NCBI GenBank assembly: GCA_964365185.1
Contig: CAYIOP010000002.1
Coordinates: 2,684-66,683 of the forward strand
Reading direction: 5' to 3'
Length of the DNA: 64,000 bases
From: an uncultured Candidatus Saccharibacteria bacterium
GTDB taxonomy: Bacteria; Patescibacteriota; Minisyncoccia; UBA6257; 2-01-FULL-56-20
In this document: piece after piece, positions 11,640 to 42,543 of the stretch
How positions within the stretch are numbered: position 1 is the stretch's first letter
Layout: each line of letters opens with the position of its first letter
Position numbers and translations under genes: made by a program
The notes under the pieces: model-generated
What the model was told of the DNA's origin: nothing
Databases searched by the model: none
Seen by the model: the letters and a program-made list of their open reading frames with translations, nothing else

Positions 11640-11780
11640 ATGTCGCGAACTTATCAACCTAAAAAAAGGAAAAGAGCGAAAGCTCATGGATTTAGATCTC
11701 GGCAAAAAAGCGCTGGCGGTCGCCGAGTCCTAAGCCGCCGAAGAGCAAAAAGCCGTCGGAAACTTACCGTTTCTAAGTAA
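11640..11780 (+). CDS. rpmH: 50S ribosomal protein L34
   Basis: Not in the ORF track (46 aa). Translation: [46 protein letters not shown]. Confidence 0.85.
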
Positions 11781-11795
11781 AAAGTCATATTTTCT

Positions 11796-12128
11796 ATGAT
11801 TCCTAAGAAGCTTCGCCTTCCCAAGGACCAGTTTTTCAAAAAAAATAACGGCGTTACCACTCCTATCTGTGTTATTAAATTCAAAGCCAATTCTTTGGGC
11901 CACAATCGCTTTGCGGTGGTGGTTTCCTCCAAAGTCGAAGCGAAGTCCACTCTTCGCCACCTCATCAAGCGCCGCTTCTTTGCTGTTTTAAAAAGCTGGC
12001 CTAATCTGGGTCTAGACCTTATAATTATAGCCCTGCCCGAAGTTAAAAATTTTTCTTTCGCCGACATTAAAATTAAAATTCTTGAATCAATTCCCAAAAT
12101 AAAAATAAAAAATGGGCCATCTTTTTAA
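11796..12128 (+). CDS. rnpA: ribonuclease P protein component
   Basis: 110 aa; RFAVVVSSKV..RHLIKRRF motif region; canonical position after rpmH. Confidence 0.75.
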   Translation: MIPKKLRLPKDQFFKKNNGVTTPICVIKFKANSLGHNRFAVVVSSKVEAKSTLRHLIKRRFFAVLKSWPNLGLDLIIIALPEVKNFSFADIKIKILESIPKIKIKNGPSF

Positions 12129-13267: not shown

Positions 13268-14410
13268 TTATTTCAAACCAAAAGAATAGAGTTTGTTGTC
13301 GTAGCGATTAATAAAGAAAATTTCACTTTCCGTTTTTTGGGGATTGATCATATCTAAGCCCTCGCCATCAAAAATTTTTTTAATTTCTCCGTCGCTCAAC
13401 TTAATTTTATAAAAAGCGTCATTCGAAAAGAAATTCTTTTTTAAATAATCATCCGGTAATCTAAATTGGGAGAAAGCTGTTTGGTCGCGATGGATGGCGC
13501 AATTTAAAAATTCAATCGCCACTTTTTTAGTACTGGTTTCGCTGCCGGTCTCCGCGCTAAAAAAACATTTTGAAGGCAAAGTGCTCCAAGCCAGTTTTTT
13601 AGCCCAATTCGCTTTTTGGTCCATTACTTCCAAGCGCCCCTCTTCCAATTTTAAAAATTTATTTCCCTTGTCGTCAAAAATCAACTCTAATCCTTTTTTA
13701 TTTCTCATCCAGAGTGTCAGGTTTCGGCTGGTTAAATTAAATTTCCAAATAGAACTCTCAAGCTCCGCGCTACTCGGCTCAATTAACAATAATTCGTCGG
13801 TCTTAACCCAATTTAAATCTATATCTTGAAGCTGGATCTTTAAAATTTCTCGAGGCGTTGATCTAGCGCTCGCTAAGTCCAGCGTCCCCAGAGATCCTCC
13901 GTTTTTCTCGGAAAAATAAGCGATGCGGTTGTCCAAGGGTGACCAATCCGCGGCTTTGATTCCTACGTCAAGTGGCCGCCAGGTTTTTTTCTCGGTGTCA
14001 AAAACGCTCCACTGAATTTTCTCCCACCCCTTCCCGAATTTAACCAACACCTTTTTCCCGTCCCAAGAAAATTTGGCTAAGGCCAAATCTTGAACTACGA
14101 CCGAGCTTAATGTTTGCTCTTCGTCTTTTAAAATTTTGGAAATCTGTCCATCCGGATGAACCACAATTATCGTCCCGTCTTTTTGGATAAAATAATTTAA
14201 GACCAAATCTTGGCTGATTAATTTAGTATTCTTGGTTAATTCTCCCAAACCCCCTCCGCCATTAACTTCTTCTTCGTTTGGCAAAATTAGCTCTTCTCCA
14301 TTGCCGCTTCCTTCTTGGTTGGGTTGTTTTTGTCGAATTAAATATCCAGCGACAAGCAAGATAGCTGCCGCAACCACCACCGAACCAATAATTAAATAAC
14401 GCTTCATCAT
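13268..14410 (-). CDS. membrane-anchored hypothetical protein with beta-propeller (TolB/PD40-like) repeats
   Basis: N-terminal TM; repeated W/F-x-(S/P)-DG-K/N patterns (FSWDGKKVLV, WSPLDNRIAYFS). First gene (3'-most) of the minus-strand T4SS-like cluster. Confidence 0.35.
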   Translation of the reverse strand: MMKRYLIIGSVVVAAAILLVAGYLIRQKQPNQEGSGNGEELILPNEEEVNGGGGLGELTKNTKLISQDLVLNYFIQKDGTIIVVHPDGQISKILKDEEQTLSSVVVQDLALAKFSWDGKKVLVKFGKGWEKIQWSVFDTEKKTWRPLDVGIKAADWSPLDNRIAYFSEKNGGSLGTLDLASARSTPREILKIQLQDIDLNWVKTDELLLIEPSSAELESSIWKFNLTSRNLTLWMRNKKGLELIFDDKGNKFLKLEEGRLEVMDQKANWAKKLAWSTLPSKCFFSAETGSETSTKKVAIEFLNCAIHRDQTAFSQFRLPDDYLKKNFFSNDAFYKIKLSDGEIKKIFDGEGLDMINPQKTESEIFFINRYDNKLYSFGLK

Positions 14411-14420
14411 TAATGAGTTA

Positions 14421-15317
14421 TTAATTTTTGCAATTAGTTATATCGCTTGGCAACAGGGGCAAACAAACACTGCTACTACAGGTATCAATTATATCGCTAC
14501 AACTATTTGAATTACTGCAAAGCAATTTGTACCCGGTCGGCTGACTTGAATCGTTTTGAGTGCAGCCAAATTTAGTTGCTCCGCCGCCTCCGCCAGTGGG
14601 GCCGCCCAAGCTGTAGCAACTGCCACCATTGCAATAGCCGCCCCCGTTATTTTCCATCGATTCATTGCATGATTGAGGGTTTAACCCAGCCGGACAATTG
14701 CCGTCTGGTATTATGCAATTTCCAGCCGAACAAACTTGTCCTAGTCCGCTGCAATTAGCCGACTCAAAACAACTTCCCGGCTCAACGCAGATATTATTAG
14801 GCGCGCAAATCAACCCTTCGTTGCAAGGGATAGCGGGCGTGCTGGTGCTCTGGATGCATATTCCTCCGACCGTGCCCGGCGGAATGCCCGGCAAAATTAC
14901 ATTTTTCCCCGTAATTTTTTTTAGTGTCGGAAGTTTTAGCTGGGTTAATTTTGGATTAATCGTGTTTAATACAACAAACGCGCCCGCCAAAAGCAAAAGT
15001 CCCAAAAGCGCCTGCTTGATTCGGTCTTTAGCATCTCCCTTGCGCGAAGGATTATCTGCCGAGAGCGTGTATTCAATACCTCCCCAAATCACCACCACAA
15101 AAGCCAGTAGCCCGCCCATCAGCAAGGCGTATTGATAAAGATTGCTGATGAGCCCAGCTGGGTCAGGATTTTTTTGGCTGGCTGGAATTGAGCCGGGAAT
15201 ATTGGGATTAATTTGCGCCGGATCAATCGTTGTTTCATCTGCCTGCGCCAAAGAAATCATCATCCCTCCTACTAATATTATCCCCGCCAATATCAAAAAA
15301 AATTTATAGTGCCTCAT
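14421..15317 (-). CDS. candidate T4SS pilin (TrbC/VirB2-like topology) with a long Cys/Gly-rich C-terminal extension
   Basis: Signal peptide, then two hydrophobic helices separated by a short charged loop (LLMGGLLAFVVVIWGGIEYTLSADNPSRKGDAKDRIKQALLGLLLLAGAFVVL). This is followed by ~150 aa rich in Cys, Gly and Ser. Confidence 0.35.
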   Translation of the reverse strand: MRHYKFFLILAGIILVGGMMISLAQADETTIDPAQINPNIPGSIPASQKNPDPAGLISNLYQYALLMGGLLAFVVVIWGGIEYTLSADNPSRKGDAKDRIKQALLGLLLLAGAFVVLNTINPKLTQLKLPTLKKITGKNVILPGIPPGTVGGICIQSTSTPAIPCNEGLICAPNNICVEPGSCFESANCSGLGQVCSAGNCIIPDGNCPAGLNPQSCNESMENNGGGYCNGGSCYSLGGPTGGGGGATKFGCTQNDSSQPTGYKLLCSNSNSCSDIIDTCSSSVCLPLLPSDITNCKN

Positions 15318-15322
15318 TAATT

Positions 15323-16033
15323 TTATTTTACAAAAGTTAATTTAATTTCCCGCGACGCCCGTTCGGTAAATTTTCTGGGATTTGAGACATTTAAAGTTGT
15401 TTTTAATTCAAAATTCGGCGCCACCTCTTGGTTTAAAACAACACTTAATTGATTTGATTTTTCGTTTTTTGCCGCTGGTCGGTCGTTAACTTTCCAAGAA
15501 AATTCAAGCTCCCCTTCGTTCTGAACGTTAAAAAAATACGGCTTAGCTAAAATTTGAATTCCTCGGTTTGAAAATTTATTTTCAAAAAACGGAGCAATTA
15601 GCGTCACCTCTGGCCTCACCGAGGGAATTAAAATGTTTTTAATAAGCATCCGCCCCTTATAATCTAGAATTTTAATTCTTAATTCCTGTTCTCCTGTCCC
15701 CACTACTCTAAAAGATGTCTTTTGGATGCCCACTCCGGTTTTAATCAAATCATCATTTAAATACCAGTAAATTTCGTTTTTAGAAAGGTTAACCAATCTT
15801 CCCGCATCAATTATTTCAAAGGCCGCTGAAATCAGCGAAGAATCAGTCGGCAAAATCTTGCCGGTAAATTCCGCTGGCGCGTAAGTATTAGCTCTCCAGG
15901 TGATTAAAAAATCTGGCTCCTTGGTCTGCGCCCGGGCTGTCAGGCCAAAAATTATTGCCAGCACCATTCCTAAAAACAGAATTATTACCCCGAATTTTAT
16001 CAGTTGTGGCCTATTGAATCCTATAAAAATCAT
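15323..16033 (-). CDS. hypothetical membrane-anchored protein (T4SS-like cluster)
   Basis: 236 aa, single N-terminal TM, beta-rich periplasmic part. Confidence 0.4.
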   Translation of the reverse strand: MIFIGFNRPQLIKFGVIILFLGMVLAIIFGLTARAQTKEPDFLITWRANTYAPAEFTGKILPTDSSLISAAFEIIDAGRLVNLSKNEIYWYLNDDLIKTGVGIQKTSFRVVGTGEQELRIKILDYKGRMLIKNILIPSVRPEVTLIAPFFENKFSNRGIQILAKPYFFNVQNEGELEFSWKVNDRPAAKNEKSNQLSVVLNQEVAPNFELKTTLNVSNPRKFTERASREIKLTFVK

Positions 16034-16219
16034 TTTAACTTTTTAATTATACCAGCTTTCTTCTTTGTTTCTAAACTGATAATTATCCACCATACTCCCT
16101 TCTGTTTTTGAAAATTGGGCATTGCTTACCCGCCGAAATCTTGATGAAGGCGGGATAATTGAAAATTTCTATCGTTTCTCCGTTGTATTACCACTGTATT
16201 TCTATGGCCTCTCTATTTT

Positions 16220-16834
16220 CTACGCCGTCATCCTGTAATCATTTTCTTCTTCGTCATCTTCGGGTTTTGCCTGCGGCTCCGGCAATTTTCGGGTAATATC
16301 CATCACTTTTTCTATTGGCTCTTTTTCTATACCAAAGGCCTCTTCTGAAACCTTAGGGGTTCCTGTTTCTTTTAACCCTCCTTCAGTTTTTGAAACAGCT
16401 TGGCCCGCTTCAGAACCACGAGCTGAACCCTTTGCTAATCCCTCGCTCGGAGCGCCTCCTCTTGGAGTTTGAACGCTTTTTTTAGGCATTCCCTTTTTGC
16501 CCCCAGCGCTTTGGCTAATTTGTACGGCTTTTGCCGCCGCGGATTCTGGATGTCTGTCGGCGTATACTGTCATCCAAAAACCAATTGTGAGGAGTGGCAG
16601 ATCTCCCACCCAAGGGATAAGTTCTGTCAGCCAAGACACTCCCATTCGGCCAAATCCTAAGCCCCTAAACCACAAATATATAACTATTATCGACGCCAGG
16701 ATGTCTCCTAGCCAGAAGTCATCTAAACCAAAAAAAATCAAAATAAGTTCAATCCCGTCAATTAAAATTAAATATATCGAAATCAGAACAATCTCTACTG
16801 TCTTAAGCTTTGGCTTCGGTTTCTCTTCATCCAT
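16220..16834 (-). CDS. hypothetical polytopic membrane protein with acidic C-terminus (T4SS-like cluster)
   Basis: 204 aa, 3 predicted TM segments. Its start codon is embedded in the left TIR of repeat copy 2. Confidence 0.4.
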   Translation of the reverse strand: MDEEKPKPKLKTVEIVLISIYLILIDGIELILIFFGLDDFWLGDILASIIVIYLWFRGLGFGRMGVSWLTELIPWVGDLPLLTIGFWMTVYADRHPESAAAKAVQISQSAGGKKGMPKKSVQTPRGGAPSEGLAKGSARGSEAGQAVSKTEGGLKETGTPKVSEEAFGIEKEPIEKVMDITRKLPEPQAKPEDDEEENDYRMTA

Positions 16835-16964
16835 GCTCCGTAGGAAATTAAATATTTTTTGTTAATTTGTAAACGACGTTTTCATATTATCTTACTTTGT
16901 CATAATTCTGCTAAATTATATTAGCTCAAAAATATTTTATTTTTCGTTATTTCCTACGGGGCAT
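16832..16964. repeat. 133-bp TIR element, copy 2 (CATGCTCCGTAGGAAAT ... ATTTCCTACGGGGCAT)
   Basis: Same length and ends as 3323-3455. The internal sequence is AT-rich with shared blocks (ttttgtaaa, gttttcat). Confidence 0.55.
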
Positions 16965-16978
16965 ATTTTATCTATAAT

Positions 16979-18736
16979 CTACGATTTTCCCTCTAAAATC
17001 TGTTGTGGATTCGTGGTGATAATTTTATCCTCAAAATAGGAAGCGATAATTTGAATCGAAACGTGTCTTCGGCCGGCAAAAAATAATCCTGTTCCCACTT
17101 CGGCTGTTAAAAGTAAACTTTTTTCCGCTTCAGTTAAACCAAAAGCCTTAGCCACGATATCAATGGTAGCCGGCGATTGTTTTAAAAGAATCTGAATTGA
17201 GGAGTTGGTGATAATCGGCCGGCCGTAAGGCGAGCGCAAAAAGTCCTCCACGTCTTGAGTAATAGTCGAGACCCCTAAGTAATATTTTCGAGCCCGTTTC
17301 ACCAGTCCAAAAAGGAAAATGGCGCTGTCTTCATATTTCATCATCCACCACGCCTCGTCGATAATTAAAAGCCGTTTTTTGAGTTGAGCGCGGGTTAAAT
17401 TCCAAATAAAATTTAAAATTATATACATCGCAATTGGCCGGAGCTCTTCTTCTAGATCGCGAATCGAAAAAACAATCAATCGGTTATTAACATTAATGTT
17501 GGTCGGCTGGTTAACAAATCCCGAAAAGCTACCTTTAGTGTATTTATAAAGTCGCTCCGCAATTCCTTTGCCCCCTTCCAAATTCCGTAAAACCGTCTCT
17601 AAATCTTCAAGCAGCGGTGCCTTCGCTCCGGTAAAATCCTCCCCAGCCACAATTTCGCGCGAAGCATAGGTTTCGGTAATTGCTCTATCCAAAAGCGCGT
17701 CTTCCACCGCCGTCACTTTGCCAAGCATTAGTTTAACCAGTCCTGCCATATTCACGATGTGAGACCGCAGAACATCCGATGCCGTCTCTCCGTCCGGAAT
17801 AGTTGGCACGTCAAACGGGTTAATGTGTTCGTCCGACGAGAGCGAGATATTAAAGAAACTTCCTCCAAAGGCCTCACATAACCTCTGGTATTCGTTTTCT
17901 GGGTCAATCACAATTACATCCACTCCGGTCATTAAGTAGCGGATAATCTCCAGTTTGGTAGTGTAGGATTTGCCTGAACCGGACTTGGCAAAAACTACCT
18001 GATTGGCGTTTTCAAGCGAAAACCGGTCAAAAATAATCAAATTATTATTGTGCCGGTTGATGCCGTACATAATGCCCTGGCTGGAGTTTAAGTCCTCAGA
18101 AACAAACGGAAAAAAAGAAGATACTGGCCCAGAATTCATTGGTGATTTCACATCGATTTTATCTTCTACGAGCGGGAAAATGGATTGCAACCCTTCAAGT
18201 TGTTGGAAAAGAGCGGGCTTAATATAAATCAGTTTCGCGTCCAAGATATTTACAACATGGCTTTCTAGTTTTGAGAGTTCCTCTAGGGTGTCTCCATAGA
18301 TGGCAATATAAACTCCCAAATCAAATAATTTTTCCTGGGCTTGTTGCAGAGAATCTCTTAAGGATTCCACGTCTTGAAGAGCGGTCTCTAGCATCGGGTC
18401 TCTCACTAAGCCCTTTTCTTGTTGGTCATTGATTTGGGATTCTATTTGAGCTGATTTTTTTCTTAAATTTTTAAGGGCAATGCCGGTGTCGATTGGATTT
18501 ATAAAAAGTGAGACGTCAAAAATGTTAGGCAAATTAATAAAGGGCTCAAACCAGCCGGTCGAGAGATAGCGTGGATAAGAAAAAACAAAAAACGTCTTGA
18601 CGAATTTGTCGCCGATTTTAAGGTAATTTGAATTCACCTGAACGCCGGCCGGCGAAATTATTTTTTTTGTTTCTTTAAAATTATTTTCCATATCTTTACA
18701 CTTCCTTTCCCGGAATATTTTGAAGTTCTTTTTCAA
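16979..18736 (-). CDS. VirB4/TrbE-family conjugal transfer ATPase, C-terminal ATPase portion
   Basis: Walker A FAKSGSGKSYTTK, Walker B LLIIDEAWWMM; TrbE/VirB4 C-terminal domain organisation. Confidence 0.75.
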   Translation of the reverse strand: MKKNFKIFRERKCKDMENNFKETKKIISPAGVQVNSNYLKIGDKFVKTFFVFSYPRYLSTGWFEPFINLPNIFDVSLFINPIDTGIALKNLRKKSAQIESQINDQQEKGLVRDPMLETALQDVESLRDSLQQAQEKLFDLGVYIAIYGDTLEELSKLESHVVNILDAKLIYIKPALFQQLEGLQSIFPLVEDKIDVKSPMNSGPVSSFFPFVSEDLNSSQGIMYGINRHNNNLIIFDRFSLENANQVVFAKSGSGKSYTTKLEIIRYLMTGVDVIVIDPENEYQRLCEAFGGSFFNISLSSDEHINPFDVPTIPDGETASDVLRSHIVNMAGLVKLMLGKVTAVEDALLDRAITETYASREIVAGEDFTGAKAPLLEDLETVLRNLEGGKGIAERLYKYTKGSFSGFVNQPTNINVNNRLIVFSIRDLEEELRPIAMYIILNFIWNLTRAQLKKRLLIIDEAWWMMKYEDSAIFLFGLVKRARKYYLGVSTITQDVEDFLRSPYGRPIITNSSIQILLKQSPATIDIVAKAFGLTEAEKSLLLTAEVGTGLFFAGRRHVSIQIIASYFEDKIITTNPQQILEGKS

Positions 18737-19376
18737 TCGTTTCCGGATTATAGAAATTATAAAAAAGCTCCACTAAGGCCTGGTCGTCTAAAAGAATCGC
18801 TTCTAGTCCGATTACGCTTAAGCCCTCAATAATTTGGTTTGATCGCTGGTTAATCTTGCTGACGTTTTCTTTAAACTCCAATTCTTTATTTTGTTCTTCT
18901 TGTTTTGGTTCCGGCGCTTGCTTTTTAAAAAACGGAATAAATTTAGTGATTCCCGCCACACTTTCTTTGCTTGGCAGATTAATTAAATTTAATGGCACCA
19001 CCACCAAAAATGTCTTCTCCATAATAGCGTTTTCATGAACAAACCCGCTGATAAATTGTTGGTATTCTCCAATTTGATTTCGGAGAAGGGGCGACGGTTC
19101 ATCGGCTTTTCTCGCTTCCAAGTTATTTAAATATCTTTCGATATTCACTTTTCTCGAATGAATGATGATTTGAATCGGAAAATCCAAGCTGTTTAAAAAA
19201 TTTTGATAACCCGACGAGATAATATCCATTTCACTCTCCGACATTAAAGCCGTATTTAACCCCGCCACCATCACTACCTGTCGCAGTCCTCCGTCTTTTA
19301 ATAGCACGACACTCTCTTTAATCTCCTCAATCTCCACCAAATCCTGAGTATTGGCTAGTTGTTGTTTTAGGGCCAT
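18696..19376 (-). CDS. probable N-terminal portion of VirB4 (separate frame, 41-nt overlap with the ATPase ORF)
   Basis: 226 aa. The two ORFs together total ~811 aa, the size of a full VirB4. They share strand, are adjacent and differ in frame by 1 nt. Confidence 0.4.
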   Translation of the reverse strand: MALKQQLANTQDLVEIEEIKESVVLLKDGGLRQVVMVAGLNTALMSESEMDIISSGYQNFLNSLDFPIQIIIHSRKVNIERYLNNLEARKADEPSPLLRNQIGEYQQFISGFVHENAIMEKTFLVVVPLNLINLPSKESVAGITKFIPFFKKQAPEPKQEEQNKELEFKENVSKINQRSNQIIEGLSVIGLEAILLDDQALVELFYNFYNPETIEKELQNIPGKEV

Positions 19377-19447
19377 AAAAATAAGTTCAATATATATTCT
19401 TCCTTCAATTATACTTTTACTTTGTCATTGAGTGAAGCCCTGACATA

Positions 19448-19924
19448 AGAGCTAAAAACGAAAAACTAAAAACGCAAAGTAAAGAATTAAGGGTTACCCT
19501 TTCTCTTTTTAAGGGTTAAGATGCTGGAGCCAAGAATATTAGCGATTTCAGTTGTTTCTTGTATCAATAATTCAACCTCTTCTAGGTTAGCTTTCTTAGC
19601 ATCTCTAAGTAAATACAGCCAAAACTTGCTCTCGTTGGCGGATTTTAAAGCATAACTAAAAAAATTAGTGAAGTCCTTTCTCGTGCTTCCAGCTTGAGCT
19701 TCAATAATATTCGCGCCTATACTAGTAGCGCTTCTCAGTAATTGCTTCGCGATTATTTGAACCGCTAAATCTTTTTTATCGAGGTTATCAATAAATTTTA
19801 TAATCTTCAAAGCCAATGAATAAGATTTCTTTTTTGAATCCATTCTTATTTTATATCTTTACACTTTTCGTTTTTAGCTTCTAATTAAATTCTACTTTAC
19901 GTTTTTCGCTTTTCGTTTTTAGCT
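19448..19924. mobile_element. IVS-like cassette: four-helix-bundle gene bracketed by ~30-bp imperfect inverted repeats
   Basis: Left IR agctaaaaacgaaaaactaaaaacgcaaagtaaag (19451-19484). Right IR ctttacgtttttcgcttttcgtttttagct (19896-19924). An extra direct copy cttttcgtttttagct lies at 19864-19880. Confidence 0.4.
19487..19843 (-). CDS. four-helix-bundle protein (23S rRNA intervening-sequence protein family)
   Basis: LAVQIIAKQLLRSATSIGANIIEAQAGSTRKDFTNFFSYALKSANESKFWL is the characteristic family core. Confidence 0.8.
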   Translation of the reverse strand: MDSKKKSYSLALKIIKFIDNLDKKDLAVQIIAKQLLRSATSIGANIIEAQAGSTRKDFTNFFSYALKSANESKFWLYLLRDAKKANLEEVELLIQETTEIANILGSSILTLKKRKGNP

Positions 19925-20449
19925 TTAACGGTAGTCCACCCTCCTCGCCGCTTTCCTCTCTCCGGTGATTTTCTCCAAAATTTGGTATTTTTCTTTAACC
20001 TTTTCCGAAAATTGTTTGGCGCTGGTTAAGCTTTCTTTGGTGCCGGTTTGAAGTTTTTGCCATTTTCCTTTTAAAGAAAGGCCCATCACGATATTTTCGA
20101 TCGACAATCCCGGCCGAGCCATTTTTTTAATTTCCTCGTCTTTTTTCACCTCTGATTTATCTAGAGTTGGTTTATCGGACTTCCAAACATAGGTTTGTGG
20201 TTGCCAGTAAAATTTTAAAGCTGAAAGCATTATCGTGGTAAAAGGCCGGCCGTTAATTTTAATAAAAGCCATCGAGCCGCCTACCGCCACCATTAGCAAG
20301 GTTAAAATCAGCCATAGCCAGGTTTTGACCATAAAAAATAGCAGAAAACTTAACCCCACCATCGCTCCGATATAAAAGAATTGTCTTAAGGTTAGGGGTC
20401 CAACTATTTTGTCTTCGGTTTCAATAAATTGAGGAACTTGAAATTGCAT
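19925..20449 (-). CDS. small two-TM membrane protein, VirB3/PrgI-like candidate
   Basis: 174 aa; two adjacent TM helices near the N-terminus; sits immediately upstream of the VirB4 ORFs, as VirB3 does in canonical T4SS. Confidence 0.35.
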   Translation of the reverse strand: MQFQVPQFIETEDKIVGPLTLRQFFYIGAMVGLSFLLFFMVKTWLWLILTLLMVAVGGSMAFIKINGRPFTTIMLSALKFYWQPQTYVWKSDKPTLDKSEVKKDEEIKKMARPGLSIENIVMGLSLKGKWQKLQTGTKESLTSAKQFSEKVKEKYQILEKITGERKAARRVDYR

Positions 20450-20484
20450 AAGTACATTTGATCTACAATATCTCTATTATCTCT

Positions 20485-20520
20485 CTATCACCTTTCGTCT
20501 ACAACCTAACACCTAATTTA
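20485..20520. repeat. heptamer-tract repeat (tctatcacctttcgtctacaacctaacacctaattt)
   Basis: Intergenic, upstream of the VirB3-like gene. Confidence 0.4.
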
Positions 20521-20524
20521 ATTA

Positions 20525-22138
20525 CTAAACTTTCTTAAGTGTTTCCAAGTCAATCTTTCCATTCTCCGGATTTAAATTCTTCGAATCCAAAGATATATTC
20601 TGCGGTTTTATGTCCGCGGTTTTAGGAGCTCCCTCTTGAAAAAATTTACCATCTTGTTTACTCGAGAAGAAATCATTTGTCTTAACACTTCCTTTGTTTA
20701 ATTCATCCGGTCTTTGAGGCAAGGGGGTGGGGGGCATTTTTATCTCCGGAGTCAATTTCTTATTTCCTCCGAAAAGCGATTTAAACCAATTTTTCTTCTG
20801 TGGCTCGGCTTCATAAGCCGGCAGTGAGCTTATCTGGTCTGCTCCATAATTAATTTTAGCCACTGGTTTTGGGATTGTTGGCTGCGGCATTTTATTGATC
20901 GGTGTTTCGGTTAGGGGTTTATTTAAATCAACCTTGTTGAATCGATTTAAATCCACCACCGGTTTTCCGGTTAAATCCATCGCCGGTTTTTGAAAGGCGG
21001 GTTTATTGATTGCTTCATTCGGTAAATTAGCTGGTCTCTCAAGCGGCGTCTGAAAAGAACTGTAGTGAACCACTTTTGGCGGCTTAATCACCTCTGATTT
21101 GGAAAATTCTTCACTGCTTTTTTTATCTTGTCTGCCAATTTCGATTCTAACAGGCCCCCTATCCTCGCCAGGCCTAATCATCTCGAACGTCGGGGACGGA
21201 GCTTCGATTTTAAAAGCCGCCTCTCTTTTCATCGGCGCCGAATTTAGCTCTTGATGAAGAATTAAAGGTTTCTCTGTTTCAATAGGGCGAACATTCGTTT
21301 TTGCTTCGAAGCTAGAAATTTTTGGAGTCGCCGTGATTTCAGTTGCCCCAACTTCTTGTTCTTCGTGTTTTTTAAGCACCCCGATTAATTCCGCGCCTGA
21401 CCGCTCTAATTTTTTAATTTCTTCCACAATCCCTAAAACATCGTTTTTTTGTTCCCAAGATAAGGCCGCTGGTTTTGGCGGCTCAATTGGTTTTTGAGCT
21501 GGCTGGATTTTTGGCGCTGGCGGCTGAGGAATCGGTATTTCTCTGGCTTGTGTCATGCTGCCGCTTAAATTCACCGGCATTATCGTTTCTATCTCGTCTA
21601 ACATCTTTGGCGCCACCTTTGGTTGCGCCTGAATTGGTTGAGGCTTTAAAGCCGGCTTAATTTCACCTTCCTTTTCTTTGGCCACTGTCCTTTCTATATT
21701 TTCCATCATGACCGGCGGCCTTTGGGTTTGAGTTATTGGTTGCTTTCTTTCTTCGGTTGTTTTAAAAGCCGCTTTTTCAAGTTCCAAATCCATTCCTACT
21801 CGCGATTCCTTGGTTACGGGAGCGTAAAGTTTCTCAAGCTGACTGCGATAAGGCGCAAAGAGCCGATTACCCAATGTTTTGGAAACATTCTCCGCGATTT
21901 TAATGTCGATTTTAAGAGCTTCCTGAAGTTCGCGCGCCACTTCCTCTGGGTGTAAAAATCCCATTATCACATAACCGGCGATTCTGGAAATTATTGGAAT
22001 TCTATCAACTGGAATATGTTCGGTCTCCGCAATTCGGTCTAAAATTTCCACGCTGTGTTCCGATACCAAAACCTCCCGCAGATTTTCTGGCAGAGTATCC
22101 CATCGCTGTAGAGCTTGTGATTTTGGAACAATAGTCAT
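20525..22138 (-). CDS. proline-rich hypothetical protein (T4SS-like cluster)
   Basis: 537 aa; central P/Q/K-rich low-complexity region (PIPQPPAPKIQPAQKPIEPPKPA). No catalytic motif. Confidence 0.45.
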   Translation of the reverse strand: MTIVPKSQALQRWDTLPENLREVLVSEHSVEILDRIAETEHIPVDRIPIISRIAGYVIMGFLHPEEVARELQEALKIDIKIAENVSKTLGNRLFAPYRSQLEKLYAPVTKESRVGMDLELEKAAFKTTEERKQPITQTQRPPVMMENIERTVAKEKEGEIKPALKPQPIQAQPKVAPKMLDEIETIMPVNLSGSMTQAREIPIPQPPAPKIQPAQKPIEPPKPAALSWEQKNDVLGIVEEIKKLERSGAELIGVLKKHEEQEVGATEITATPKISSFEAKTNVRPIETEKPLILHQELNSAPMKREAAFKIEAPSPTFEMIRPGEDRGPVRIEIGRQDKKSSEEFSKSEVIKPPKVVHYSSFQTPLERPANLPNEAINKPAFQKPAMDLTGKPVVDLNRFNKVDLNKPLTETPINKMPQPTIPKPVAKINYGADQISSLPAYEAEPQKKNWFKSLFGGNKKLTPEIKMPPTPLPQRPDELNKGSVKTNDFFSSKQDGKFFQEGAPKTADIKPQNISLDSKNLNPENGKIDLETLKKV

Positions 22139-22156
22139 TTAATTTAAAAATTAAAT

Positions 22157-24307
22157 TTATTCTTTTTCTCCTCCGCCTCCTCCATAGCTAAAGCCGCCTA
22201 AACCAACGGAGTTTCTCACCATAGAATTTTTAAAGTTTTCTACATTTTGTCTCATTTTTTCATCTAGTCTTGTTATTCTTTGAATTTGCGCTTCAGTTTC
22301 CAGAGAAGAAGGAAGGCCGGCTAGTCGGCTCATTTCTATTTTATAGCCAGCCAGCTCTTGTTCCATGGCGCCCTGATAAGATGGGGCGAAATTTTCTAAA
22401 GTCGAGGCCCTGGATTTTGAAATAACATTTGGCACTAACGAAGGCATGCTCGCTGTCATTCCATGGGCTACACTCCAACCTAGTTCCTTTAGAGTATTTT
22501 CGTCTAATCCCATTTTAGCTTTACCACTAAACATATCATTGATGTGCATAAGCGCCACATCTTTTTTCTCAAAAGTTTTATAAAATTCTCTCGCCGCCTC
22601 ATCAATTTTATCTCTTGAAGCCCCCCCTCTTTTTAAATTCATCATCTCTACATTTACCGTGCTCGCCTTTTCTAGTTTTTCGAAAGCTTTTTTCTGGTCA
22701 TATTGTTCATAAAGTTTTTTATTTCTATCATTAATAGTTGAATGAATATTTAAATCACCCAATTCTCCACGTTTCATTAATTCCTGTTCAATGGCTATTT
22801 TTTCTTCATTTGTAGCTGAAAGATGTTTGGTCTTTAGAACGCTATCAGAAAGTCCTTTTATTCTTTCTGCCGCCGCCTTCACTAAGTTTTCTCCCCCAGC
22901 CACCCTAAGTTGTGTTAACCCCGTTGCTCCCGCTCCCAGTCCTTTAGCCGCAAGGCCAGCGCCAAAGAATCTGGCTAATTTTGACCTATCTCTAAGCCCC
23001 TGAAGTCCCGAGGTAGCGGCTTTTAATCCCTTCTCAGCCCTAACAACCCCAGCCACTTTTCCAGCCGCCCTAATTCCTTTCCCTTTTGCCCACCCGCCCA
23101 TCTTGCCGGCAAATCCTTTCATCGCCGCCATCCCCGCCGCGGCTCCGTGAATGCTTAAACTATTGGCCGCGAAAAGTCCGCCGATCGCAAGCCCCACCAT
23201 CAAAACCGCCTGGAGCGCGAACTCTATAATTGGCGAAAAAAGCCCGGTAAAAAATCCGGTCTCAAGCGCCTTAAATGTCGAACTGTGAGTTGAACCAAAC
23301 GAACCCGAAGCCCCCTGGCCTTCAGACATTGCGCTGTTAACCAGAACCACTAAATAAAGGAAGAAAACTACAATCGGCGCGAAAAATACTTGTTTTAAAA
23401 AAGTGTGCCACCACTTATCCCAGTTGCTTTTAAGTCCTGGGAATATCCACATTAACCACGCAAACGGCATCAATATCAGAAGAATGCCAATCGAAACATA
23501 CCGATAAAGCAACATCACCACCAATATTCCTAAAGTAATATTAATTGCCGCCAAGGTGAGTATGGTCACAAACAAAGAAGCAATTGGCAGGAGTAATTTA
23601 CCCATTGATTGTCCTATAATCGAGTTGGTACCCGAATTTTGGTCAACATCTTCTGTGGTTAACTCATTCGCGCCTGCTTCAAATAAAACCCCTTTCTGCG
23701 GATTAAAAGCTCCAGATAAAGCGGTGGCAAAATTATTAAAAGAATTCCCCTCTCCAGCCGGATTCACTTGTTCCAAAAAATAAATCGTCAGTTGGTCCGC
23801 AAAGTTTAAAATCGCGCCGGCAAAAACCAAACTAAAATTAACCAGCAAAGCCGCCACAATCAATTTCCACAAAATCTCTTTAATGCCATAGCCAGAGATG
23901 CGCAAGATAGTGGCAATGGCAATCACGATAATCGCCGCGGTAAATCCTAAATTAGCGATTGAAAGGGATACCGGAAACCCGAATTTAACCGCCGGCGAAT
24001 TCACAATCTGAGTGTTCAGGTTCAAAATCACTTCAATTATCCAGGTCTGAATAGCAATTCCTATGGCCGCGATCGTGCTTATAAGCCACGAAAATCCAAA
24101 CATGACTTTTCCGATTACCGTATAAGCAATGTCGCCAAAAAAATCCGCGTGCGTCTGTTGCGGCGCAAACAAAATTACAAATACCAATGGCGCCGCGAGC
24201 CCCAGCCCCCAAACAATCACCCGTCGTTTTCCCCAAAACCAATTTTTTATTTTAATCAGTTGACGCATTTTCATCTTTTTAATTTTAACCAGTTGCCGCC
24301 GGTTCAT
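22157..24307 (-). CDS. VirB6/TrbL-like polytopic membrane protein with Ala/Gly-rich C-terminal domain
   Basis: 716 aa; signal/TM, then >8 TM helices, then a hydrophilic A/G/K-rich tail. Position and topology match VirB6-like channel proteins. Confidence 0.45.
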   Translation of the reverse strand: MNRRQLVKIKKMKMRQLIKIKNWFWGKRRVIVWGLGLAAPLVFVILFAPQQTHADFFGDIAYTVIGKVMFGFSWLISTIAAIGIAIQTWIIEVILNLNTQIVNSPAVKFGFPVSLSIANLGFTAAIIVIAIATILRISGYGIKEILWKLIVAALLVNFSLVFAGAILNFADQLTIYFLEQVNPAGEGNSFNNFATALSGAFNPQKGVLFEAGANELTTEDVDQNSGTNSIIGQSMGKLLLPIASLFVTILTLAAINITLGILVVMLLYRYVSIGILLILMPFAWLMWIFPGLKSNWDKWWHTFLKQVFFAPIVVFFLYLVVLVNSAMSEGQGASGSFGSTHSSTFKALETGFFTGLFSPIIEFALQAVLMVGLAIGGLFAANSLSIHGAAAGMAAMKGFAGKMGGWAKGKGIRAAGKVAGVVRAEKGLKAATSGLQGLRDRSKLARFFGAGLAAKGLGAGATGLTQLRVAGGENLVKAAAERIKGLSDSVLKTKHLSATNEEKIAIEQELMKRGELGDLNIHSTINDRNKKLYEQYDQKKAFEKLEKASTVNVEMMNLKRGGASRDKIDEAAREFYKTFEKKDVALMHINDMFSGKAKMGLDENTLKELGWSVAHGMTASMPSLVPNVISKSRASTLENFAPSYQGAMEQELAGYKIEMSRLAGLPSSLETEAQIQRITRLDEKMRQNVENFKNSMVRNSVGLGGFSYGGGGGEKE

Positions 24308-26714
24308 CTCCGTCGCAATAAAACTTAGACGTTGGCTCTAAATATGAACTGTTTATATCAGCCCTCCATTTCTTTATACCCTCCAATCTCTCGTTGGCAT
24401 CTGATAAAGATAAACTAAGCATTTCAAAATCAAACCTAGTTTCTAACGATTGATTTAATTCTCGTACTTGCGAAGTGCTGGTGGTATTTTGAGCTTCATT
24501 GATAAAGTTATTGAGCCATGTGATCGAAGAACTCGCTTTATTAATTTCTTGTTGGAGTATAACTGGCTCTCTTGTTTCATAGTTCTTAATAGCAATTACC
24601 ATATTCGATAATCTAATAGGATCCCTATTGTCAGGTGGTCCATAATCATCCGCGCATAATACAAGCGATCTTTTCAGCACGTCAATGGTTAAAGGTATTT
24701 CCGGTAAATAAGAGCTATATTGGGCAAGAGTCAGGACTAGAATTTCTCGATAACCCTCTGCCAATTTTATCAAAGTGCTGGTCGGCTGAACTGAATTAAT
24801 CTCATTAATTTCTTGCGCGTCGCGAACGCAATCCCGATATTCCTGCGACTCCAAATTATAAGTGGCGCAAGTGGTTGTATAATCTTCTACTTCGTTTCGT
24901 CTATTTGAAACCAAAGCTAACCCTTCCGCTCCTTTTTGAAACATTTTATTAATTAAAGAATCCACAAAAGCGGTCGCAATCGCTATTAAATCATTGGAAT
25001 TAACAATCCAATCCAGATGTGCTCCAAGCGCTCTGTCGAGTGTCTCTGCCACTGCTTTGCCTGGTGTGGTATCTTCCCAGCCGTCTTGCGGGCAAACGTT
25101 AAACCATTTTAGTCCATCTGAATCCTGCTCTATCGGACCGATGTAATCTACTCCTGTCATTTTAGCTACTGCTTTTGCATCTTCCTCATCATTACCACTT
25201 AACGAACCTAATCTGGCCTCAACTTCTATAAAATCAATTGTTTTTCTCTTCTTACAAACTCGAGTTGTTAAAAATCCTTGGCTTGAACCGACTTTAAGCT
25301 GTTCTGCTTCTGCTTGCTTGGCGGATTTAGCCAGCGCCAAGTCGCTTAATTCAATCACCACTCCAAAATAATTATTCTGGGGTTTTAATACTTTGATATA
25401 ACTCTCAATTCCTCCAGCCCTAAAGTCATCATAAAAATCTTTTATATTTTCCGTCGCTTCATTCAGAGTGCATTTGAATTGTTTTTGAGTTCTTCTTTCT
25501 TCATTGCCCCGGGGAATTTCAAAACTTTTTATTATTAATCCCCTAAACCGTGAACAAAGCACTCCGGGCACAGTGATATTTGCCACCGCGCTTGAGAAGG
25601 TATTCACCGCGGCGTCTTTTAGAAAACCCGGGAAGTCCTGAACAAATTTTGGTTTACCGCCGCCCTGAATCCAATTGGTCGTTTGCTTCACAATCATATC
25701 TATTAGTTTCTTTTTAAGTTTTTCAGTTATTACTTGTTTAATCACTTTCCAAACATCACGCGCAAATATCTGAATATCGAAAACTATATCCCCAAACCCC
25801 AAAAATGCGTGAGCTTTCTTAATTGAAAAAATATTTACTAGAAATGAAATTGCTCCGTTCTGATTTTCTCCGCTCGAAAATTTATTTAATGCTTCGGCTT
25901 TTTTAAATTCATCTTCAAATTTACCAATCGCCTGATTGTAATTTTCTTCCTGCAGTCCAAAAACCAAACCGGTTTTAACCGGGTCAATTTGATCTTGAGC
26001 CAAAGTCAAAAAGTTTTTCTGATACAAAATAAGCTCCAAAAAACTTTTATGGAAATTAGCGAGCGGCTCCGGCACCTTAAGTGTTTTGGTTTTAATTATT
26101 GTTTGATCCAAAGCCAGCTCCACCGAACCCATAACTGTCTCTGGCGACGACTCGCTCAAAAAATTTGATAACCCGGTTTTAACAAAATTTTGTTCAATGA
26201 TTTCATTAAAGTTAGCAATATATTGAGCAACATCTTCCTGACTGGAATTTTTAATTATTTTAAAATCATTACTTTCTTTTTCTAATTCCCCCCTAACTTT
26301 ATTAATTTCCTCTCCAATTGCTTGAGGATTAGATATTGCCGCGGCCGAAGCGATTACATCTTGAGTTACGACATTCACCTTGTCAGAGATTAAACCCCCT
26401 TCTTCGGGATTTAGCGTTGCCATCTTTTCAGTCAATTTTCGCGCCAGATTTTCTGTTAGATTAGAGGGGTCTTCAGCCGGAGGCAACTCAACTTCACTAT
26501 TTTGAACCAGCGCCTCTGGTTGTTGAATTAGTGTTTCAATAAAAGCGCTTTTATTATTTTGACCATTTTCGGCTTTTGTCCCGGCTTCTATTTCAAAATC
26601 ACTATTTATGGTTGGTTTTTTTGAGTCCAATAAGCCGCCTAAAACAAAAGTCAACGAGCCAGCCATCAGCGCAAGTAGCAAAAAACTGGTGATGAGTTTT
26701 TTCGGATCAGCCAT
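24285..26714 (-). CDS. large secreted/surface hypothetical protein (T4SS-like cluster)
   Basis: 809 aa, N-terminal signal/TM, no recognisable catalytic motif. First gene of the minus-strand cluster. Confidence 0.4.
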   Translation of the reverse strand: MADPKKLITSFLLLALMAGSLTFVLGGLLDSKKPTINSDFEIEAGTKAENGQNNKSAFIETLIQQPEALVQNSEVELPPAEDPSNLTENLARKLTEKMATLNPEEGGLISDKVNVVTQDVIASAAAISNPQAIGEEINKVRGELEKESNDFKIIKNSSQEDVAQYIANFNEIIEQNFVKTGLSNFLSESSPETVMGSVELALDQTIIKTKTLKVPEPLANFHKSFLELILYQKNFLTLAQDQIDPVKTGLVFGLQEENYNQAIGKFEDEFKKAEALNKFSSGENQNGAISFLVNIFSIKKAHAFLGFGDIVFDIQIFARDVWKVIKQVITEKLKKKLIDMIVKQTTNWIQGGGKPKFVQDFPGFLKDAAVNTFSSAVANITVPGVLCSRFRGLIIKSFEIPRGNEERRTQKQFKCTLNEATENIKDFYDDFRAGGIESYIKVLKPQNNYFGVVIELSDLALAKSAKQAEAEQLKVGSSQGFLTTRVCKKRKTIDFIEVEARLGSLSGNDEEDAKAVAKMTGVDYIGPIEQDSDGLKWFNVCPQDGWEDTTPGKAVAETLDRALGAHLDWIVNSNDLIAIATAFVDSLINKMFQKGAEGLALVSNRRNEVEDYTTTCATYNLESQEYRDCVRDAQEINEINSVQPTSTLIKLAEGYREILVLTLAQYSSYLPEIPLTIDVLKRSLVLCADDYGPPDNRDPIRLSNMVIAIKNYETREPVILQQEINKASSSITWLNNFINEAQNTTSTSQVRELNQSLETRFDFEMLSLSLSDANERLEGIKKWRADINSSYLEPTSKFYCDGDEPAATG

Positions 26715-26774: not shown

Positions 26775-26850
26775 ATCTATCACCTACTGCGTCCGTCCGA
26801 AGCTTTAAGCGAAGGCGGATAACCTATCATCTAAAACCTCTCACCTAACT
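26775..26850. repeat. intergenic copy of a ~36-bp core repeat (ctactgcgtccgtccgaagctttaagcgaaggcgga) flanked by heptamer tracts
   Basis: The core at 26784-26819 is almost identical to the core at 27051-27086 inside ksgA. Confidence 0.5.
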
Positions 26851-27682
26851 CTTTCGTAATTTTAATGATTTCTTCAACCCCTAAATCTTGAGGCCTAAGA
26901 TTAAAAGCTAATCCCAATTTCTCCAAACCCTCTTTAATTTTTGATCGATCAAGTTTTAACCCTTGTTTTAAGTTGTTTTCAATCGTTTTTCTTGGTTGCT
27001 GAAACAGAATTCGCACCATCTCATAATAATTTTTTCTCCCTACCTTTAACCTACTGCGTCCGTCCGAAGCTTTAAGCGAAGGAGGATCGCCTATCACCTT
27101 TAACCTAATCACGGCCGACTCCACCCCCGGCTCCGGCTTAAAAACCGATCTGGGCAAAGTTAAAATTATTTCGGGAATTGCCCAAAACTGGATTGAAGCC
27201 GCCAACCTATTCATTTTAGGTGGCTGGGCGATGATTCTCTCCGCCACCTCCTTTTGAATTGTCAAAACGCAAACCTCCGGTTTATTTTTAAGTTCTCCAA
27301 TTTGCCTCAAAAGATATCCAGTCAAATAATATGGAATGTTACCTACTAATTTATAAACTTTACATTTTTCGCTTATAGCTTTAAGTTCTTTTCTTACGTC
27401 TCCTTCAATAATTTCTATATTTTTATTTTCCTCGAATTTTTTTTTTAGTATTTGCACTAATTGTTCATCCCTTTCAATCGCAATAATCTTAACACCTAAC
27501 ACCTGCCTGCCCGCCACAGCTTTAGCGACGGAGGGACACCTAACACCTAATTCCTCCGTCAACTCTCCATGCCCCGCTCCTATTTCAATCACTGTTTCTC
27601 CGGTCTTTAACTCCAAAGCCGCCACAATTTTTTTAATGGCCTCATTGCTTTTTAAAAAATATTGTCCCAATTTTTTCCCCAT
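26831..27682 (-). CDS. rsmA: 16S rRNA (adenine1518/1519-N6)-dimethyltransferase KsgA/RsmA, carrying two in-frame repeat-element insertions
   Basis: KKLGQYFLKSNEAIKKIV, EIGAGHGELT and VGNIPYYLTGYLL align to KsgA. The extra 19-aa segments GVRCPSVAKAVAGRQVLGV and IGDPPSLKASDGRSRLKVG are absent from E. coli KsgA and are encoded by the dispersed repeat cores. Confidence 0.8.
   Translation of the reverse strand: MGKKLGQYFLKSNEAIKKIVAALELKTGETVIEIGAGHGELTEELGVRCPSVAKAVAGRQVLGVKIIAIERDEQLVQILKKKFEENKNIEIIEGDVRKELKAISEKCKVYKLVGNIPYYLTGYLLRQIGELKNKPEVCVLTIQKEVAERIIAQPPKMNRLAASIQFWAIPEIILTLPRSVFKPEPGVESAVIRLKVIGDPPSLKASDGRSRLKVGRKNYYEMVRILFQQPRKTIENNLKQGLKLDRSKIKEGLEKLGLAFNLRPQDLGVEEIIKITKELGERF
27040..27112. 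repeat. in-frame repeat insertion 2 in ksgA (core 27051-27086, flanked by direct repeats AGGTTAAAGGT on the coding strand)
   Basis: Near-identical to the intergenic core at 26784-26819. Confidence 0.5.
27491..27550. repeat. in-frame repeat insertion 1 in ksgA (core ctgcctgcccgccacagctttagcgacggaggga, flanked by 13-bp AGGTGTTAGGTGT direct repeats)
   Basis: Divergent relative of the 36-bp core with the same flank architecture. Confidence 0.5.
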
Positions 27683-27751: not shown

Positions 27752-27780
27752 CTCTATAACCTATAACCTAACACCTAATC
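27752..27780. repeat. heptamer-tract repeat (tctataacctataacctaacacctaatcc) in the ksgA-uvrD intergenic region
   Basis: Same CACCTAA-type heptamers. Confidence 0.4.
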
Positions 27781-38622: not shown

Positions 38623-38908
38623 GTATTTTGTGAGTAACTCTAATTTTAAAAGATTTTTGGCCGGTTGACTAACTTTAAAATCAGCCCTATACTTTATAGG
38701 TTCCTTTTAAGCGATTTTAATTTCCAGATTGAAGAATGACGGTTAATTCTAGCTTTATTAAATTCTTGAAAAAGCAATAATTCCCTCTTTATTATCAGGG
38801 CGCTTTTTACGTTTAAAAGGTGACACTAACTAAAAAGTCACAAATTTTTTATTCCTAAAAAATTCAAACACTTATCTAAGTTAATGAAGAATTTAGGGAA
38901 TTTATTAC

Positions 38909-40435: not shown

Positions 40436-40442
40436 TTAGATT

Positions 40443-40529
40443 ATAGGTGATAGGTTTTAGAATTTTGGCGCTAAAAAGCAAAATAGTGGAATTTTTCTAA
40501 CACCTAACATCTAACACCTAACCTCTATG
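40443..40529. repeat. heptamer-tract repeat pair in inverted orientation (ataggtgatagg ... ctaacacctaacatctaacacctaacc) immediately upstream of the 40527 start codon
   Basis: Same CACCTAA family as the other heptamer tracts. Confidence 0.4.
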
Positions 40530-41930: not shown

Positions 41931-42543
41931 AAAAATCATCGCTATTGTTGCCGGCCTTATTCTTGTTTTTGTCGCTTATTTTGGCAGTTACTTGCCGCTT
42001 CAGAAATCTCATCTTTTTATTAAAACCATGAGAAACCTAAGCCAAATAAATTCTCTTCAAGAGTTTGAAGAAGCAATGTCAACTGTTCTTGAATTTAATT
42101 CGCCGATTGGGCAAGAAGAACTGCTACGTCAGTTTGCCAGCACGATTATCGATGTTATCAATCAACCCAACACCCCCCCCGAAGTTGTAAAAGAACTTAT
42201 TACCTATCTTAATAAATATTATGAACCTATTATTCAAAGTGGCAGTGGCATGAGTTTTAATCAAAATCTTTATGTTTTAGGTACTCTAAATGAGATCGCT
42301 GCCTTAAAAACCCAGAATCCAGAATTTTTATCTGCTGCCAAAACCTATTATCTTAAAAGTTATGAGATTGGCCCAAAACGTCCCCAAGCTTTGTTTGGTC
42401 TTTTTGATATCTATCGGATTGAAGGAAATGTTGAAGAGGTAAAGAAAATCCACGAACAAATTCTTACTCAGTGGCCAGGCGAGAAAAAAACCAAGCAGGC
42501 CTTTGAAGAATTTCTTAGTAAAGTTTCATCTAGTAATCAATAA
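41914..42543 (+). CDS. hypothetical membrane-anchored protein
   Basis: 209 aa, N-terminal TM. Confidence 0.4.
   Translation: MNQNLKKIIAIVAGLILVFVAYFGSYLPLQKSHLFIKTMRNLSQINSLQEFEEAMSTVLEFNSPIGQEELLRQFASTIIDVINQPNTPPEVVKELITYLNKYYEPIIQSGSGMSFNQNLYVLGTLNEIAALKTQNPEFLSAAKTYYLKSYEIGPKRPQALFGLFDIYRIEGNVEEVKKIHEQILTQWPGEKKTKQAFEEFLSKVSSSNQ

Follow-up and report, generated by a model that had tools for sequence, protein, structure and literature searches.

The 64,000-nucleotide stretch of contig CAYIOP010000002.1 analysed here (the window, numbered from its first letter) carries a cluster of eleven co-directional open reading frames (ORFs) on the minus strand, which fill positions 13268-26714 and are joined by short or overlapping junctions. 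In cluster order these ORFs encode 809, 716, 537, 174, 118, 226, 585, 204, 236, 298 and 380 amino acids (aa). The same genes were called independently on public contigs with identical DNA, which come from the 0.1-µm fraction of Hainich groundwater well H43, and the eleven co-directional genes of the original prediction, made from the letters of the window without database searches, are confirmed by both the ORFs and these calls; in the latter VirB4 starts at the ATG at 18691, with which the 585-aa ORF becomes one of 570 aa, and VirB6 has 703 aa. Five of the ORFs are assigned to type IV secretion system (T4SS) families by hidden Markov model (HMM) searches (the VirB4 ATPase, a TrsD-like N-domain, PrgI/VirB3, a PF18895 pilin and, at the family level, an extended VirB6), and five are conserved lineage-specific genes, here called p809, pro537, p204, p236 and p380, the last of them TolB-like. 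The earlier statement that most components are without recognisable homology was overstated, as six of ten have some. The cluster is very probably a chromosomal T4SS of the Patescibacteria clade, derived from the monoderm MPF_FATA conjugation machinery and arranged in the way usual for class Paceibacteria (Parcubacteria); this confidence covers the identity of the system, not its direction of transport. The system itself, present near dnaA in almost all ultra-small Patescibacteria, was already described in 2023-2025, and the copy in the window is an ordinary example of it. The window stems from a Hainich groundwater metagenome-assembled genome with kinship to Ca. Liptonbacteria and Wolfebacteria.

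The VirB4 ATPase gene (16979..18691, minus strand) encodes the C-terminal two-thirds of the protein. It matches NF045971, the 'VirB4-like conjugal transfer ATPase, CD1110 family' of MPF_FATA, with 390.6 bits (1.4e-116) and so lies over the curated cut-off of 325, which bears out the VirB4 ATPase originally predicted; it also matches PF19044 (5.7e-30). The Walker B motif LLIIDE was located by script and the Walker A motif AKSGSGKS was read from the translation. Relatives were sought by a VirB4 scan of one genome per species, which gave more than 576 loci, and each protein of the window was run against the best 80 of these with tblastn and blastp. All 80 are Patescibacteria metagenome-assembled genomes (MAGs), belonging to Paceibacterota, Wolfe-, Harrison-, Kaiser-, Zambryski- and Terrybacteria, together with 'Saccharibacteria' records, a label that stems from an automated pipeline. 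The window VirB4 is 59-84% identical to the Patescibacteria homologues of these best 80 genome matches, and 29-35% identical to its nearest plasmid homologues, which are of the CD1110 family and come from Firmicutes and Actinobacteria. Judged in this way, by identity and not by a tree, VirB4 is consistent with membership of the Patescibacteria clade.

The N-domain of VirB4 is encoded by a separate TrsD-like gene of 226 aa (18696..19376, minus strand), recognised from profile matches together with collinearity. Its matches to NF045975 (1.2e-8), NF041427 TrsD (7e-6) and TIGR00929 (4.5e-4) are weak and under the curated cut-offs, and all of them fall at the N-terminal ~200 positions of VirB4; there is also a precomputed match to the TraC-like PF26593. 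The VirB4 ATG comes 4 nt after the stop codon of the TrsD-like gene, and the two genes are collinear with single fused ORFs of 768-800 aa in four related loci (L012:746-3106, L032:9314-11716, L038:9368-11674 and L063:9410-11719), in which the TrsD-like protein corresponds to residues 1 to ~220. In other related loci the two are split as they are here, with a median gap of 4 nt, and they are adjacent in 57 of 73 loci. A frameshift or an assembly error was considered as the source of the split and rejected: because the split is common to most loci, and is called in the same way on independent contigs, it represents a feature of the lineage, namely the 'TrsD' gene of the 2025 survey of Patescibacteria (Quiñonero-Coronel et al. 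2025, Microb Genom; PMC12102498).

The PrgI/VirB3-like protein (19925..20449, minus strand) has two transmembrane (TM) segments, matches PF12666 with 43.9 bits (3.5e-11, cut-off 27) and is found in 71 of the 80 related loci. The two-TM VirB3-like protein of the original prediction is therefore present, but it is not immediately upstream of VirB4 as had been thought, since both the TrsD-like gene and a further small gene intervene. The latter (19487..19843, minus strand) encodes a four-helix-bundle protein of the 23S rRNA-IVP family (PF05635, 3.4e-22; TIGR02436, 1.4e-25), which by tblastn is present between the PrgI and TrsD-like genes in three of the 80 related loci (L016, L042 and L057); it is a passenger and no T4SS component. 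The extended VirB6-like protein (22157..24268, minus strand; 703 aa from the start at 24268, with the ORF open to 24307) is polytopic, with about 7-8 TM segments followed by a hydrophilic C-terminal domain of ~330 aa. Taken alone, the window protein has a weak match to NF046089, the CD3337/EF1877 mobilome membrane protein (2.6e-4). Among members of its family from related loci, PF04610 TrbL/VirB6 is matched by six of 35 (best 1.3e-7), which together with the TM profile supports the multi-TM VirB6-like protein that had been proposed; the family profile found nothing among PDB sequences.

The pilin gene (14421..15317, minus strand) is the one gene of the PF18895 type in the whole window. Its product matches PF18895 T4SS_pilin with 37.1 bits (3.3e-9), over the gathering score of 26.6, and NF045849 with 8.9e-5, so that the VirB2-like pilin, earlier named as a candidate, can be assigned to a family. 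The protein consists of a signal peptide, a two-TM hairpin (aa ~55-122) and a Gly/Cys-rich C-terminal tail of ~170 aa with 18 Cys (14421-14930). If the C-terminus faces outward, the Cys-rich tail would lie on the pilus surface. Pilin ORFs range from 99 to 499 aa among the related loci, and the tail is thus variable.

The gene that opens the cluster, p809 (24285..26714, minus strand), encodes an exported or surface protein of 809 aa with an N-terminal TM/signal anchor at aa 6-31, and agrees with the large secreted protein that had been predicted there. There are several features of note. First, VirB6 follows p809 directly in 34 of 36 related loci, with a median gap of 4 nt. Second, it has a core of ~300 aa (aa ~300-610) with near-invariant W348-IQGGGKP-F357, Cys 387, 415, 487 and 541, and TPG550-552, and the family defined by this core has 2,520 representatives of 50%-identity clusters at E<=1e-3 in a library of 1.84 billion proteins. 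Third, the sequence 'KKAHA-FLGFGDIVFD' stands before the core, behind an N-terminal extension of ~300 aa. Finally, some relatives carry F5/8-type-C (discoidin), Ig-like, PKD or CHB_HEX_C (chitobiase-C) modules, and these adhesin-type modules fit a surface location.

Searches with p809 itself gave no match in Pfam, NCBIfam or, with three different alignments, PDB sequences. A word-indexed homology search returned 13 proteins, to which a profile re-search added none, and the AlphaFold2 (AF2) model made from this 13-sequence alignment has a mean predicted local distance difference test score (pLDDT) of 58, with the core below 50; Foldseek of this poor model against PDB gave noise and no match at E<=1e-3. 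The idea of p809 as a VirB1-like hydrolase found no support in an hhalign comparison with an SLT hydrolase (probability 0.1%). The sole recurrent Pfam match of the p809 family is PF13605 DUF4141, found in four of 58 and one of 32 relatives (best 7.1e-5, 22.6 bits, cut-off 30) and mapping to ~30 residues just ahead of the core; consensus sequences of the family do not match it. In Bacteroides conjugative transposons, DUF4141 marks the gene adjoining traJ/VirB6.

Short-form members of the p809 family have a signal peptide that ends in AxA and is followed by IPV[FIT]D. Of 135 family members, 45 have the IPVxD motif at a fixed spacing (median 50 aa) before the W-IQGGG core, as against 2.6 expected and a maximum of 8 in shuffles. 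The mature VirB5 protein of R388, TrwJ, has a similar start (AQG-IPVFDG), and the motif, exact or slightly varied, recurs in five more VirB5 proteins. An hhalign comparison of the p809 family with seven VirB5 proteins aligned 17 columns, consisting of the signal-peptide end and the motif (E 1.7e-4, probability 50%); controls with signal peptides alone reach 2e-3, close to this result, and no signal is seen when the signal peptides are removed. Moreover, p809 is 3-4 times larger than VirB5, and its Cys-containing core has no counterpart there. The motif and the gene order are to be read as a resemblance to VirB5 and not as proof of homology. In long-form p809, as in the window (25730-25830, minus strand; aa ~286-312), the VirB5-like motif occurs ~300 aa into the protein, together with an internal hydrophobic stretch and an 'AHA' site that resembles a signal-peptidase site, an arrangement that suggests either an added N-terminal extension or internal processing.

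We raise the proposal, itself somewhat doubtful as the profile tests did not confirm homology, that the p809 family is the VirB5-type component so far missing from the pilus machine of Patescibacteria. Were it so, p809 would be exported and translationally coupled to VirB6, and cleavage at the AxA site would expose a VirB5/TrwJ-like IPVxD N-terminus; the protein might then nucleate or cap the VirB2-like pilus, with the Cys-stabilised core, and the lectin- or Ig-type modules of some lineages, as a host-binding tip. The long forms would hold this module behind their ~300-aa N-terminal extension with its internal AHA site. A VirB5-like component of the Patescibacteria clade is mentioned neither in the 2025 survey (PMC12102498) nor in the FEMS review of 2025, and such a counterpart, if the proposal is true, would help to show how a VirB2-type pilus can be made by a monoderm.

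The remaining lineage-specific genes differ in how much can be said of them. From its TM profile and a comparison of related loci, pro537 (20525..22138, minus strand) is a cytoplasmic protein with no TM segment, conserved in its N-terminal helical domain of ~108 aa only and otherwise consisting of a variable, low-complexity tail; a profile of the N-domain has no match in Pfam or PDB. Its description as Pro-rich is correct (11% Pro), but it is not VirB10-like, a candidate role that was rejected as there is neither a TM segment nor a conserved C-terminal domain. Between VirB4 and the pilin gene there are two genes only, p204 and p236, and not three small membrane proteins as first described. The TM profile of p204 (16220..16834, minus strand) is that of a small polytopic membrane protein; its tail is disordered and acidic/Pro-rich, its 'ELIPxxxxLPxxT' segment is conserved, and a protein of this type directly follows VirB4 in all ten related loci inspected, although it is detectable by BLAST in seven loci only.

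Family matches and a model describe p236 (15323..16033, minus strand) as bitopic, with a TM helix at the N-terminus and an ectodomain that is all-beta (Ig-like, BiPBP_C-like). BiPBP_C is matched by five of 24 family members (best 3.9e-7), and the AF2 model, based on three sequences, is all-beta past the TM helix with low confidence (pLDDT 46); the word-indexed search returned two proteins, and the family profile has no match among PDB sequences. In 21 of 23 loci the pilin gene comes straight after p236. A VirB8-like identity was tried and set aside, because signs of an NTF2-like fold are absent and hhalign against the post-hydrolase protein of C. perfringens is unsupportive, with the limit that the models are of low confidence and that a very divergent VirB8 is possible. 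The last gene of the cluster, here and in related loci, is p380 (13268..14410, minus strand), a membrane-anchored TolB-like beta-propeller with an N-terminal TM segment. Its family profile matches TolB propeller chains in PDB with 3.6e-8 over ~160 residues, and DPP-IV and WD40 propellers also, which upholds the beta-propeller originally recognised; membership of p380 in a Tol-Pal system is unlikely in a monoderm.

The organisation of the locus is conserved. The order uvrD-ksgA-p809-VirB6-pro537-PrgI-TrsD-VirB4-(small membrane protein)-p236-pilin-p380, followed by convergent jag-yidC-rnpA-rpmH and then by dnaA-dnaN, spans dozens of Paceibacteria genomes with intergenic gaps near zero. In the window the low-coordinate flank consists of dnaN (8846-9961, minus strand), dnaA (10123-11490, minus strand), rpmH (11641-11781, plus strand), rnpA (11796-12128, plus strand) and yidC and jag/R3H (plus strand, to 13240), and the high-coordinate flank of ksgA/rsmA (26831-27682, minus strand) and a UvrD/PcrA helicase gene (27775-29682, minus strand). 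GC content is 0.37-0.43 in the cluster, and the flanks and the remaining window are alike.

Functions required for conjugation are absent from this setting. No relaxase, type IV coupling protein (T4CP, VirD4) or VirB11 was found in the 64 kb by Pfam scans of ORFs of at least 300 aa or by tblastn and phmmer with Firmicutes and R388 queries, as had been reported from the letters alone. Within the window VirB8, VirB9 and VirB10 are not detectable, there is no MobC, integrase or repeat boundary, and no ORF of the cluster has an SLT, CHAP, NlpC or lysozyme match that would indicate a VirB1-type hydrolase. No relaxase or T4CP gene accompanies the mating-pair genes, oriT being outside the search. The absence of T4CP, relaxase and VirB11, together with housekeeping flanks, like composition and conserved order, shows the cluster to be a vertically inherited chromosomal apparatus rather than a plasmid or an integrative and conjugative element (ICE). 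The earlier suggestion of an apparatus for host contact or uptake, and not a self-transmissible plasmid, is in line with the lack of DNA-processing genes, with the conserved chromosomal order and with the same published conclusion (PMC12102498, PMC10633639).

How such an apparatus might work can be outlined from VirB-system biology. A VirB4 hexamer would dock on membrane-embedded VirB3 and VirB6 and would spend ATP so that pilin is pulled from the membrane and polymerised into a short pilus, or a conduit, through the wall, while the exported p809, p236 and p380 would form the extracellular part, or its anchor, in the wall of a monoderm. The essentiality of the Southlakia locus and the lack of a relaxase point to host-cell contact and macromolecule exchange, and not conjugation, as its probable use. 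Reviews leave the role of the patescibacterial T4SS open between effector delivery and the uptake of host molecules, the latter proposed in PMC11665869 and PMC12857230, and T4SS-pilus-like tubes at the parasite-host interface, with acquisition of host RNA, are described in a preprint (bioRxiv 10.64898/2026.06.21.733656). We tentatively favour a T4CP-independent pilus conduit whose main use may be the acquisition of material from the host (nucleic acids or nucleotides). Pilus-mediated adhesion as the only function seems to us an improbable end-point.

The alternative that survives best is that the T4SS delivers proteins to the host bacterium, by injection or release, in the manner of the VirB/Dot systems of pathogens. 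This was the earliest reading in the Saccharibacteria literature (PMC11665869, PMC10633639), exporters that dispense with a T4CP are known in Ptl and the Brucella VirB system (PMC12102498), and the cluster family does encode exported proteins with adhesin-type modules. However, the window has neither a coupling protein, the receptor for export, nor a recognisable effector, and the known T4CP-less exporters depend on the periplasm, from which they take Sec-exported substrates, a compartment that we infer to be absent in a monoderm. Uptake is also favoured because these organisms lack nucleotide synthesis and need nucleotide import, while ComEC-dependent competence is dispensable in Southlakia. 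We regard effector export as possible but rather unlikely.

A conjugative element, whether an ICE or an integrated plasmid and whether active or decaying, is very improbable. VirB4, PrgI and VirB6 do descend from monoderm conjugation systems, but besides the missing relaxase, MobC, T4CP, integrase and repeat boundaries, the same-order housekeeping flanks recur across many genomes of the class, the base composition is that of the flanks, and the ORFs are intact and tightly coupled; among Patescibacteria as a whole, relaxases occur in 103 of 3,035 genomes, and T4CP genes are mostly elsewhere (PMC12102498). That the ATPase might be a non-T4SS translocase of FtsK/HerA type, with unrelated membrane proteins as neighbours, the case that was to refute the original prediction, is hardly credible, as its secondary matches to DUF87/HerA (4.3e-8) and, at the P-loop region, to CedB/CedD are weak, its match to the VirB4 CD1110 family is the best by about a hundred powers of ten and is over the curated cut-off, and its neighbours match T4SS profiles, PrgI and the pilin passing Pfam gathering scores, the VirB6 family matching TrbL/VirB6, and TrsD and VirB6 themselves doing so weakly or at the family level.

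Several points nonetheless weigh against a Patescibacteria-clade T4SS that serves mainly for uptake. First, function is read from the genes alone, and import is not known to have been demonstrated in any Patescibacterium. Second, 64 kb of the genome are visible, and a distant T4CP or relaxase is possible, VirD4-like genes lying far from virB4 in many Patescibacteria (PMC12102498). Third, the window VirB6 and TrsD-like proteins are under curated cut-offs and are assigned by family-level matches and collinearity, just as the clade of VirB4 is taken from identity to relatives and not from a tree. Finally, four conserved genes have no assigned fold.

Beyond the cluster, a few observations can be made on its surroundings. 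The original prediction placed the cluster next to the replication origin, and it does adjoin dnaA, dnaN, rpmH, rnpA, yidC and jag; however, the cumulative GC-skew minimum and a switch of genes from minus to plus strand lie ~27 kb from dnaA, near 38.7 kb (window ~38600-44000), with the strand switch falling between the end of iPGM at 38622 and the start of RNase Y at 38909. No DnaA-box cluster is present in the 150-bp dnaA-rpmH spacer, and the true replication origin may be elsewhere than at dnaA. Promoter and terminator scans did no better than shuffles. Just past uvrD (29888-31525, plus strand) is a gene for a Pro-rich protein of 545 aa that has a signal peptide at its N-terminus, a TM segment at its C-terminus and He_PIG Ig-like domains (6e-14); it may be a surface adhesin, and tblastn did not find it among the related loci. 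About 6 kb from the T4SS cluster (32720-34246, minus strand) is a gene for a ComM-like Mg-chelatase/MCM-type AAA+ protein, of a family associated with competence. A long run of sugar-nucleotide and glycan-modification genes follows at 42677-63188 (plus strand), including GDP-mannose 4,6-dehydratase, several epimerases, two DegT aminotransferases, a GT10 fucosyltransferase-like enzyme, a C-methyltransferase, a sulfatase and E1 alpha/beta dehydrogenase-like genes; together with a Wzy_C O-antigen-ligase-like gene at 40527-41930, this run suggests a surface-glycan locus.

The patescibacterial T4SS is one of a small number of machines known to be indispensable to bacteria in the candidate phyla radiation (CPR) for their epibiotic life, and the window provides a clean Paceibacteria example in which all genes are intact. 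It also yields a gene-by-gene inventory of the class-specific accessories, namely the split VirB4, the single Cys-tailed pilin, the TolB-like propeller, the bitopic beta-sandwich protein and the widespread VirB6-coupled exported family. Its worth is in the parts without an assignment, above all the possible counterpart of VirB5.

Comparison with known systems places the cluster closest to those of its own clade. The 2025 survey covered 3,035 genomes of Patescibacteria and found a VirB4 clade, monophyletic and placed within MPF_FATA, in 2,407 of them, accompanied by TrsD, PrgI/VirB3, VirB6 and VirB2-like (PF18895) pilins, and the systems of Paceibacteria and Microgenomatia were typically near dnaA, dnaN, ksgA, rnpA and rpmH (PMC12102498). 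The window shares with this clade the MPF_FATA-type VirB4, the separate TrsD-like gene, PrgI/VirB3, VirB6 and the PF18895 pilin, as well as the lack of a nearby relaxase or T4CP, the position by dnaA/dnaN/ksgA/rnpA/rpmH and the core order VirB6...PrgI-TrsD-VirB4. In the Saccharibacterium Southlakia epibionticum, transposon sequencing (Tn-seq) showed the locus SEML1_0006-0019, which lies beside dnaA and has the core order VirB4-0009-PrgI-0011-0012-VirB6-pilins, to be essential for epibiotic growth (Wang et al. 2023, Cell; PMC10633639). The slot of pro537, the interval between VirB6 and PrgI, is that of SEML1_0011. Where Southlakia has an array of six pilins the window has one with a Cys-rich tail, and it lacks both the lysozyme or peptidase genes after VirB4 and the NTF2-like (VirB8-like) gene; conversely, it has the Paceibacteria-typical p809, p204, p236 and TolB-like p380, plus the passenger four-helix-bundle gene.

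With the Firmicutes MPF_FATA systems (CTn2/CD1110 and the Prg/Pcf system of pCF10) the cluster has in common a CD1110-family VirB4, PrgI upstream of VirB4, a monoderm envelope and the absence of VirB7, VirB9 and VirB10. The C. perfringens plasmid pSXP-169_2 encodes MobC, a relaxase, VirD4 (CD1115), an 850-aa SLT hydrolase and an unsplit 783-aa VirB4, and has no pilin, whereas the window has none of MobC, relaxase, VirD4 and SLT hydrolase and has a pilin and a split VirB4; hhalign did not link the SLT hydrolase of this plasmid to p809, its post-hydrolase protein to p236, or its 264-aa upstream protein to the VirB6 family. Helicobacter pylori ComB and archaeal Ced are instances of uptake by a machine with a VirB4-type ATPase and without relaxase, T4CP or VirB11, an analogy already drawn in PMC11665869. 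ComB is a diderm system with VirB7-10, unlike the window, and the window ATPase scores 33.7 bits on CedB, with a cut-off of 700, and is thus not a member of Ced at the sequence level. The MPF_T systems VirB/Trw (R388) have VirB7, VirB8, VirB9, VirB10 and VirB11, which the window lacks; nonetheless, the VirB2 pilus of R388 Trw goes together with a VirB5 tip/stalk gene beside VirB6, and in the window the VirB2-like pilin goes together with the gene for an exported protein directly upstream of VirB6.

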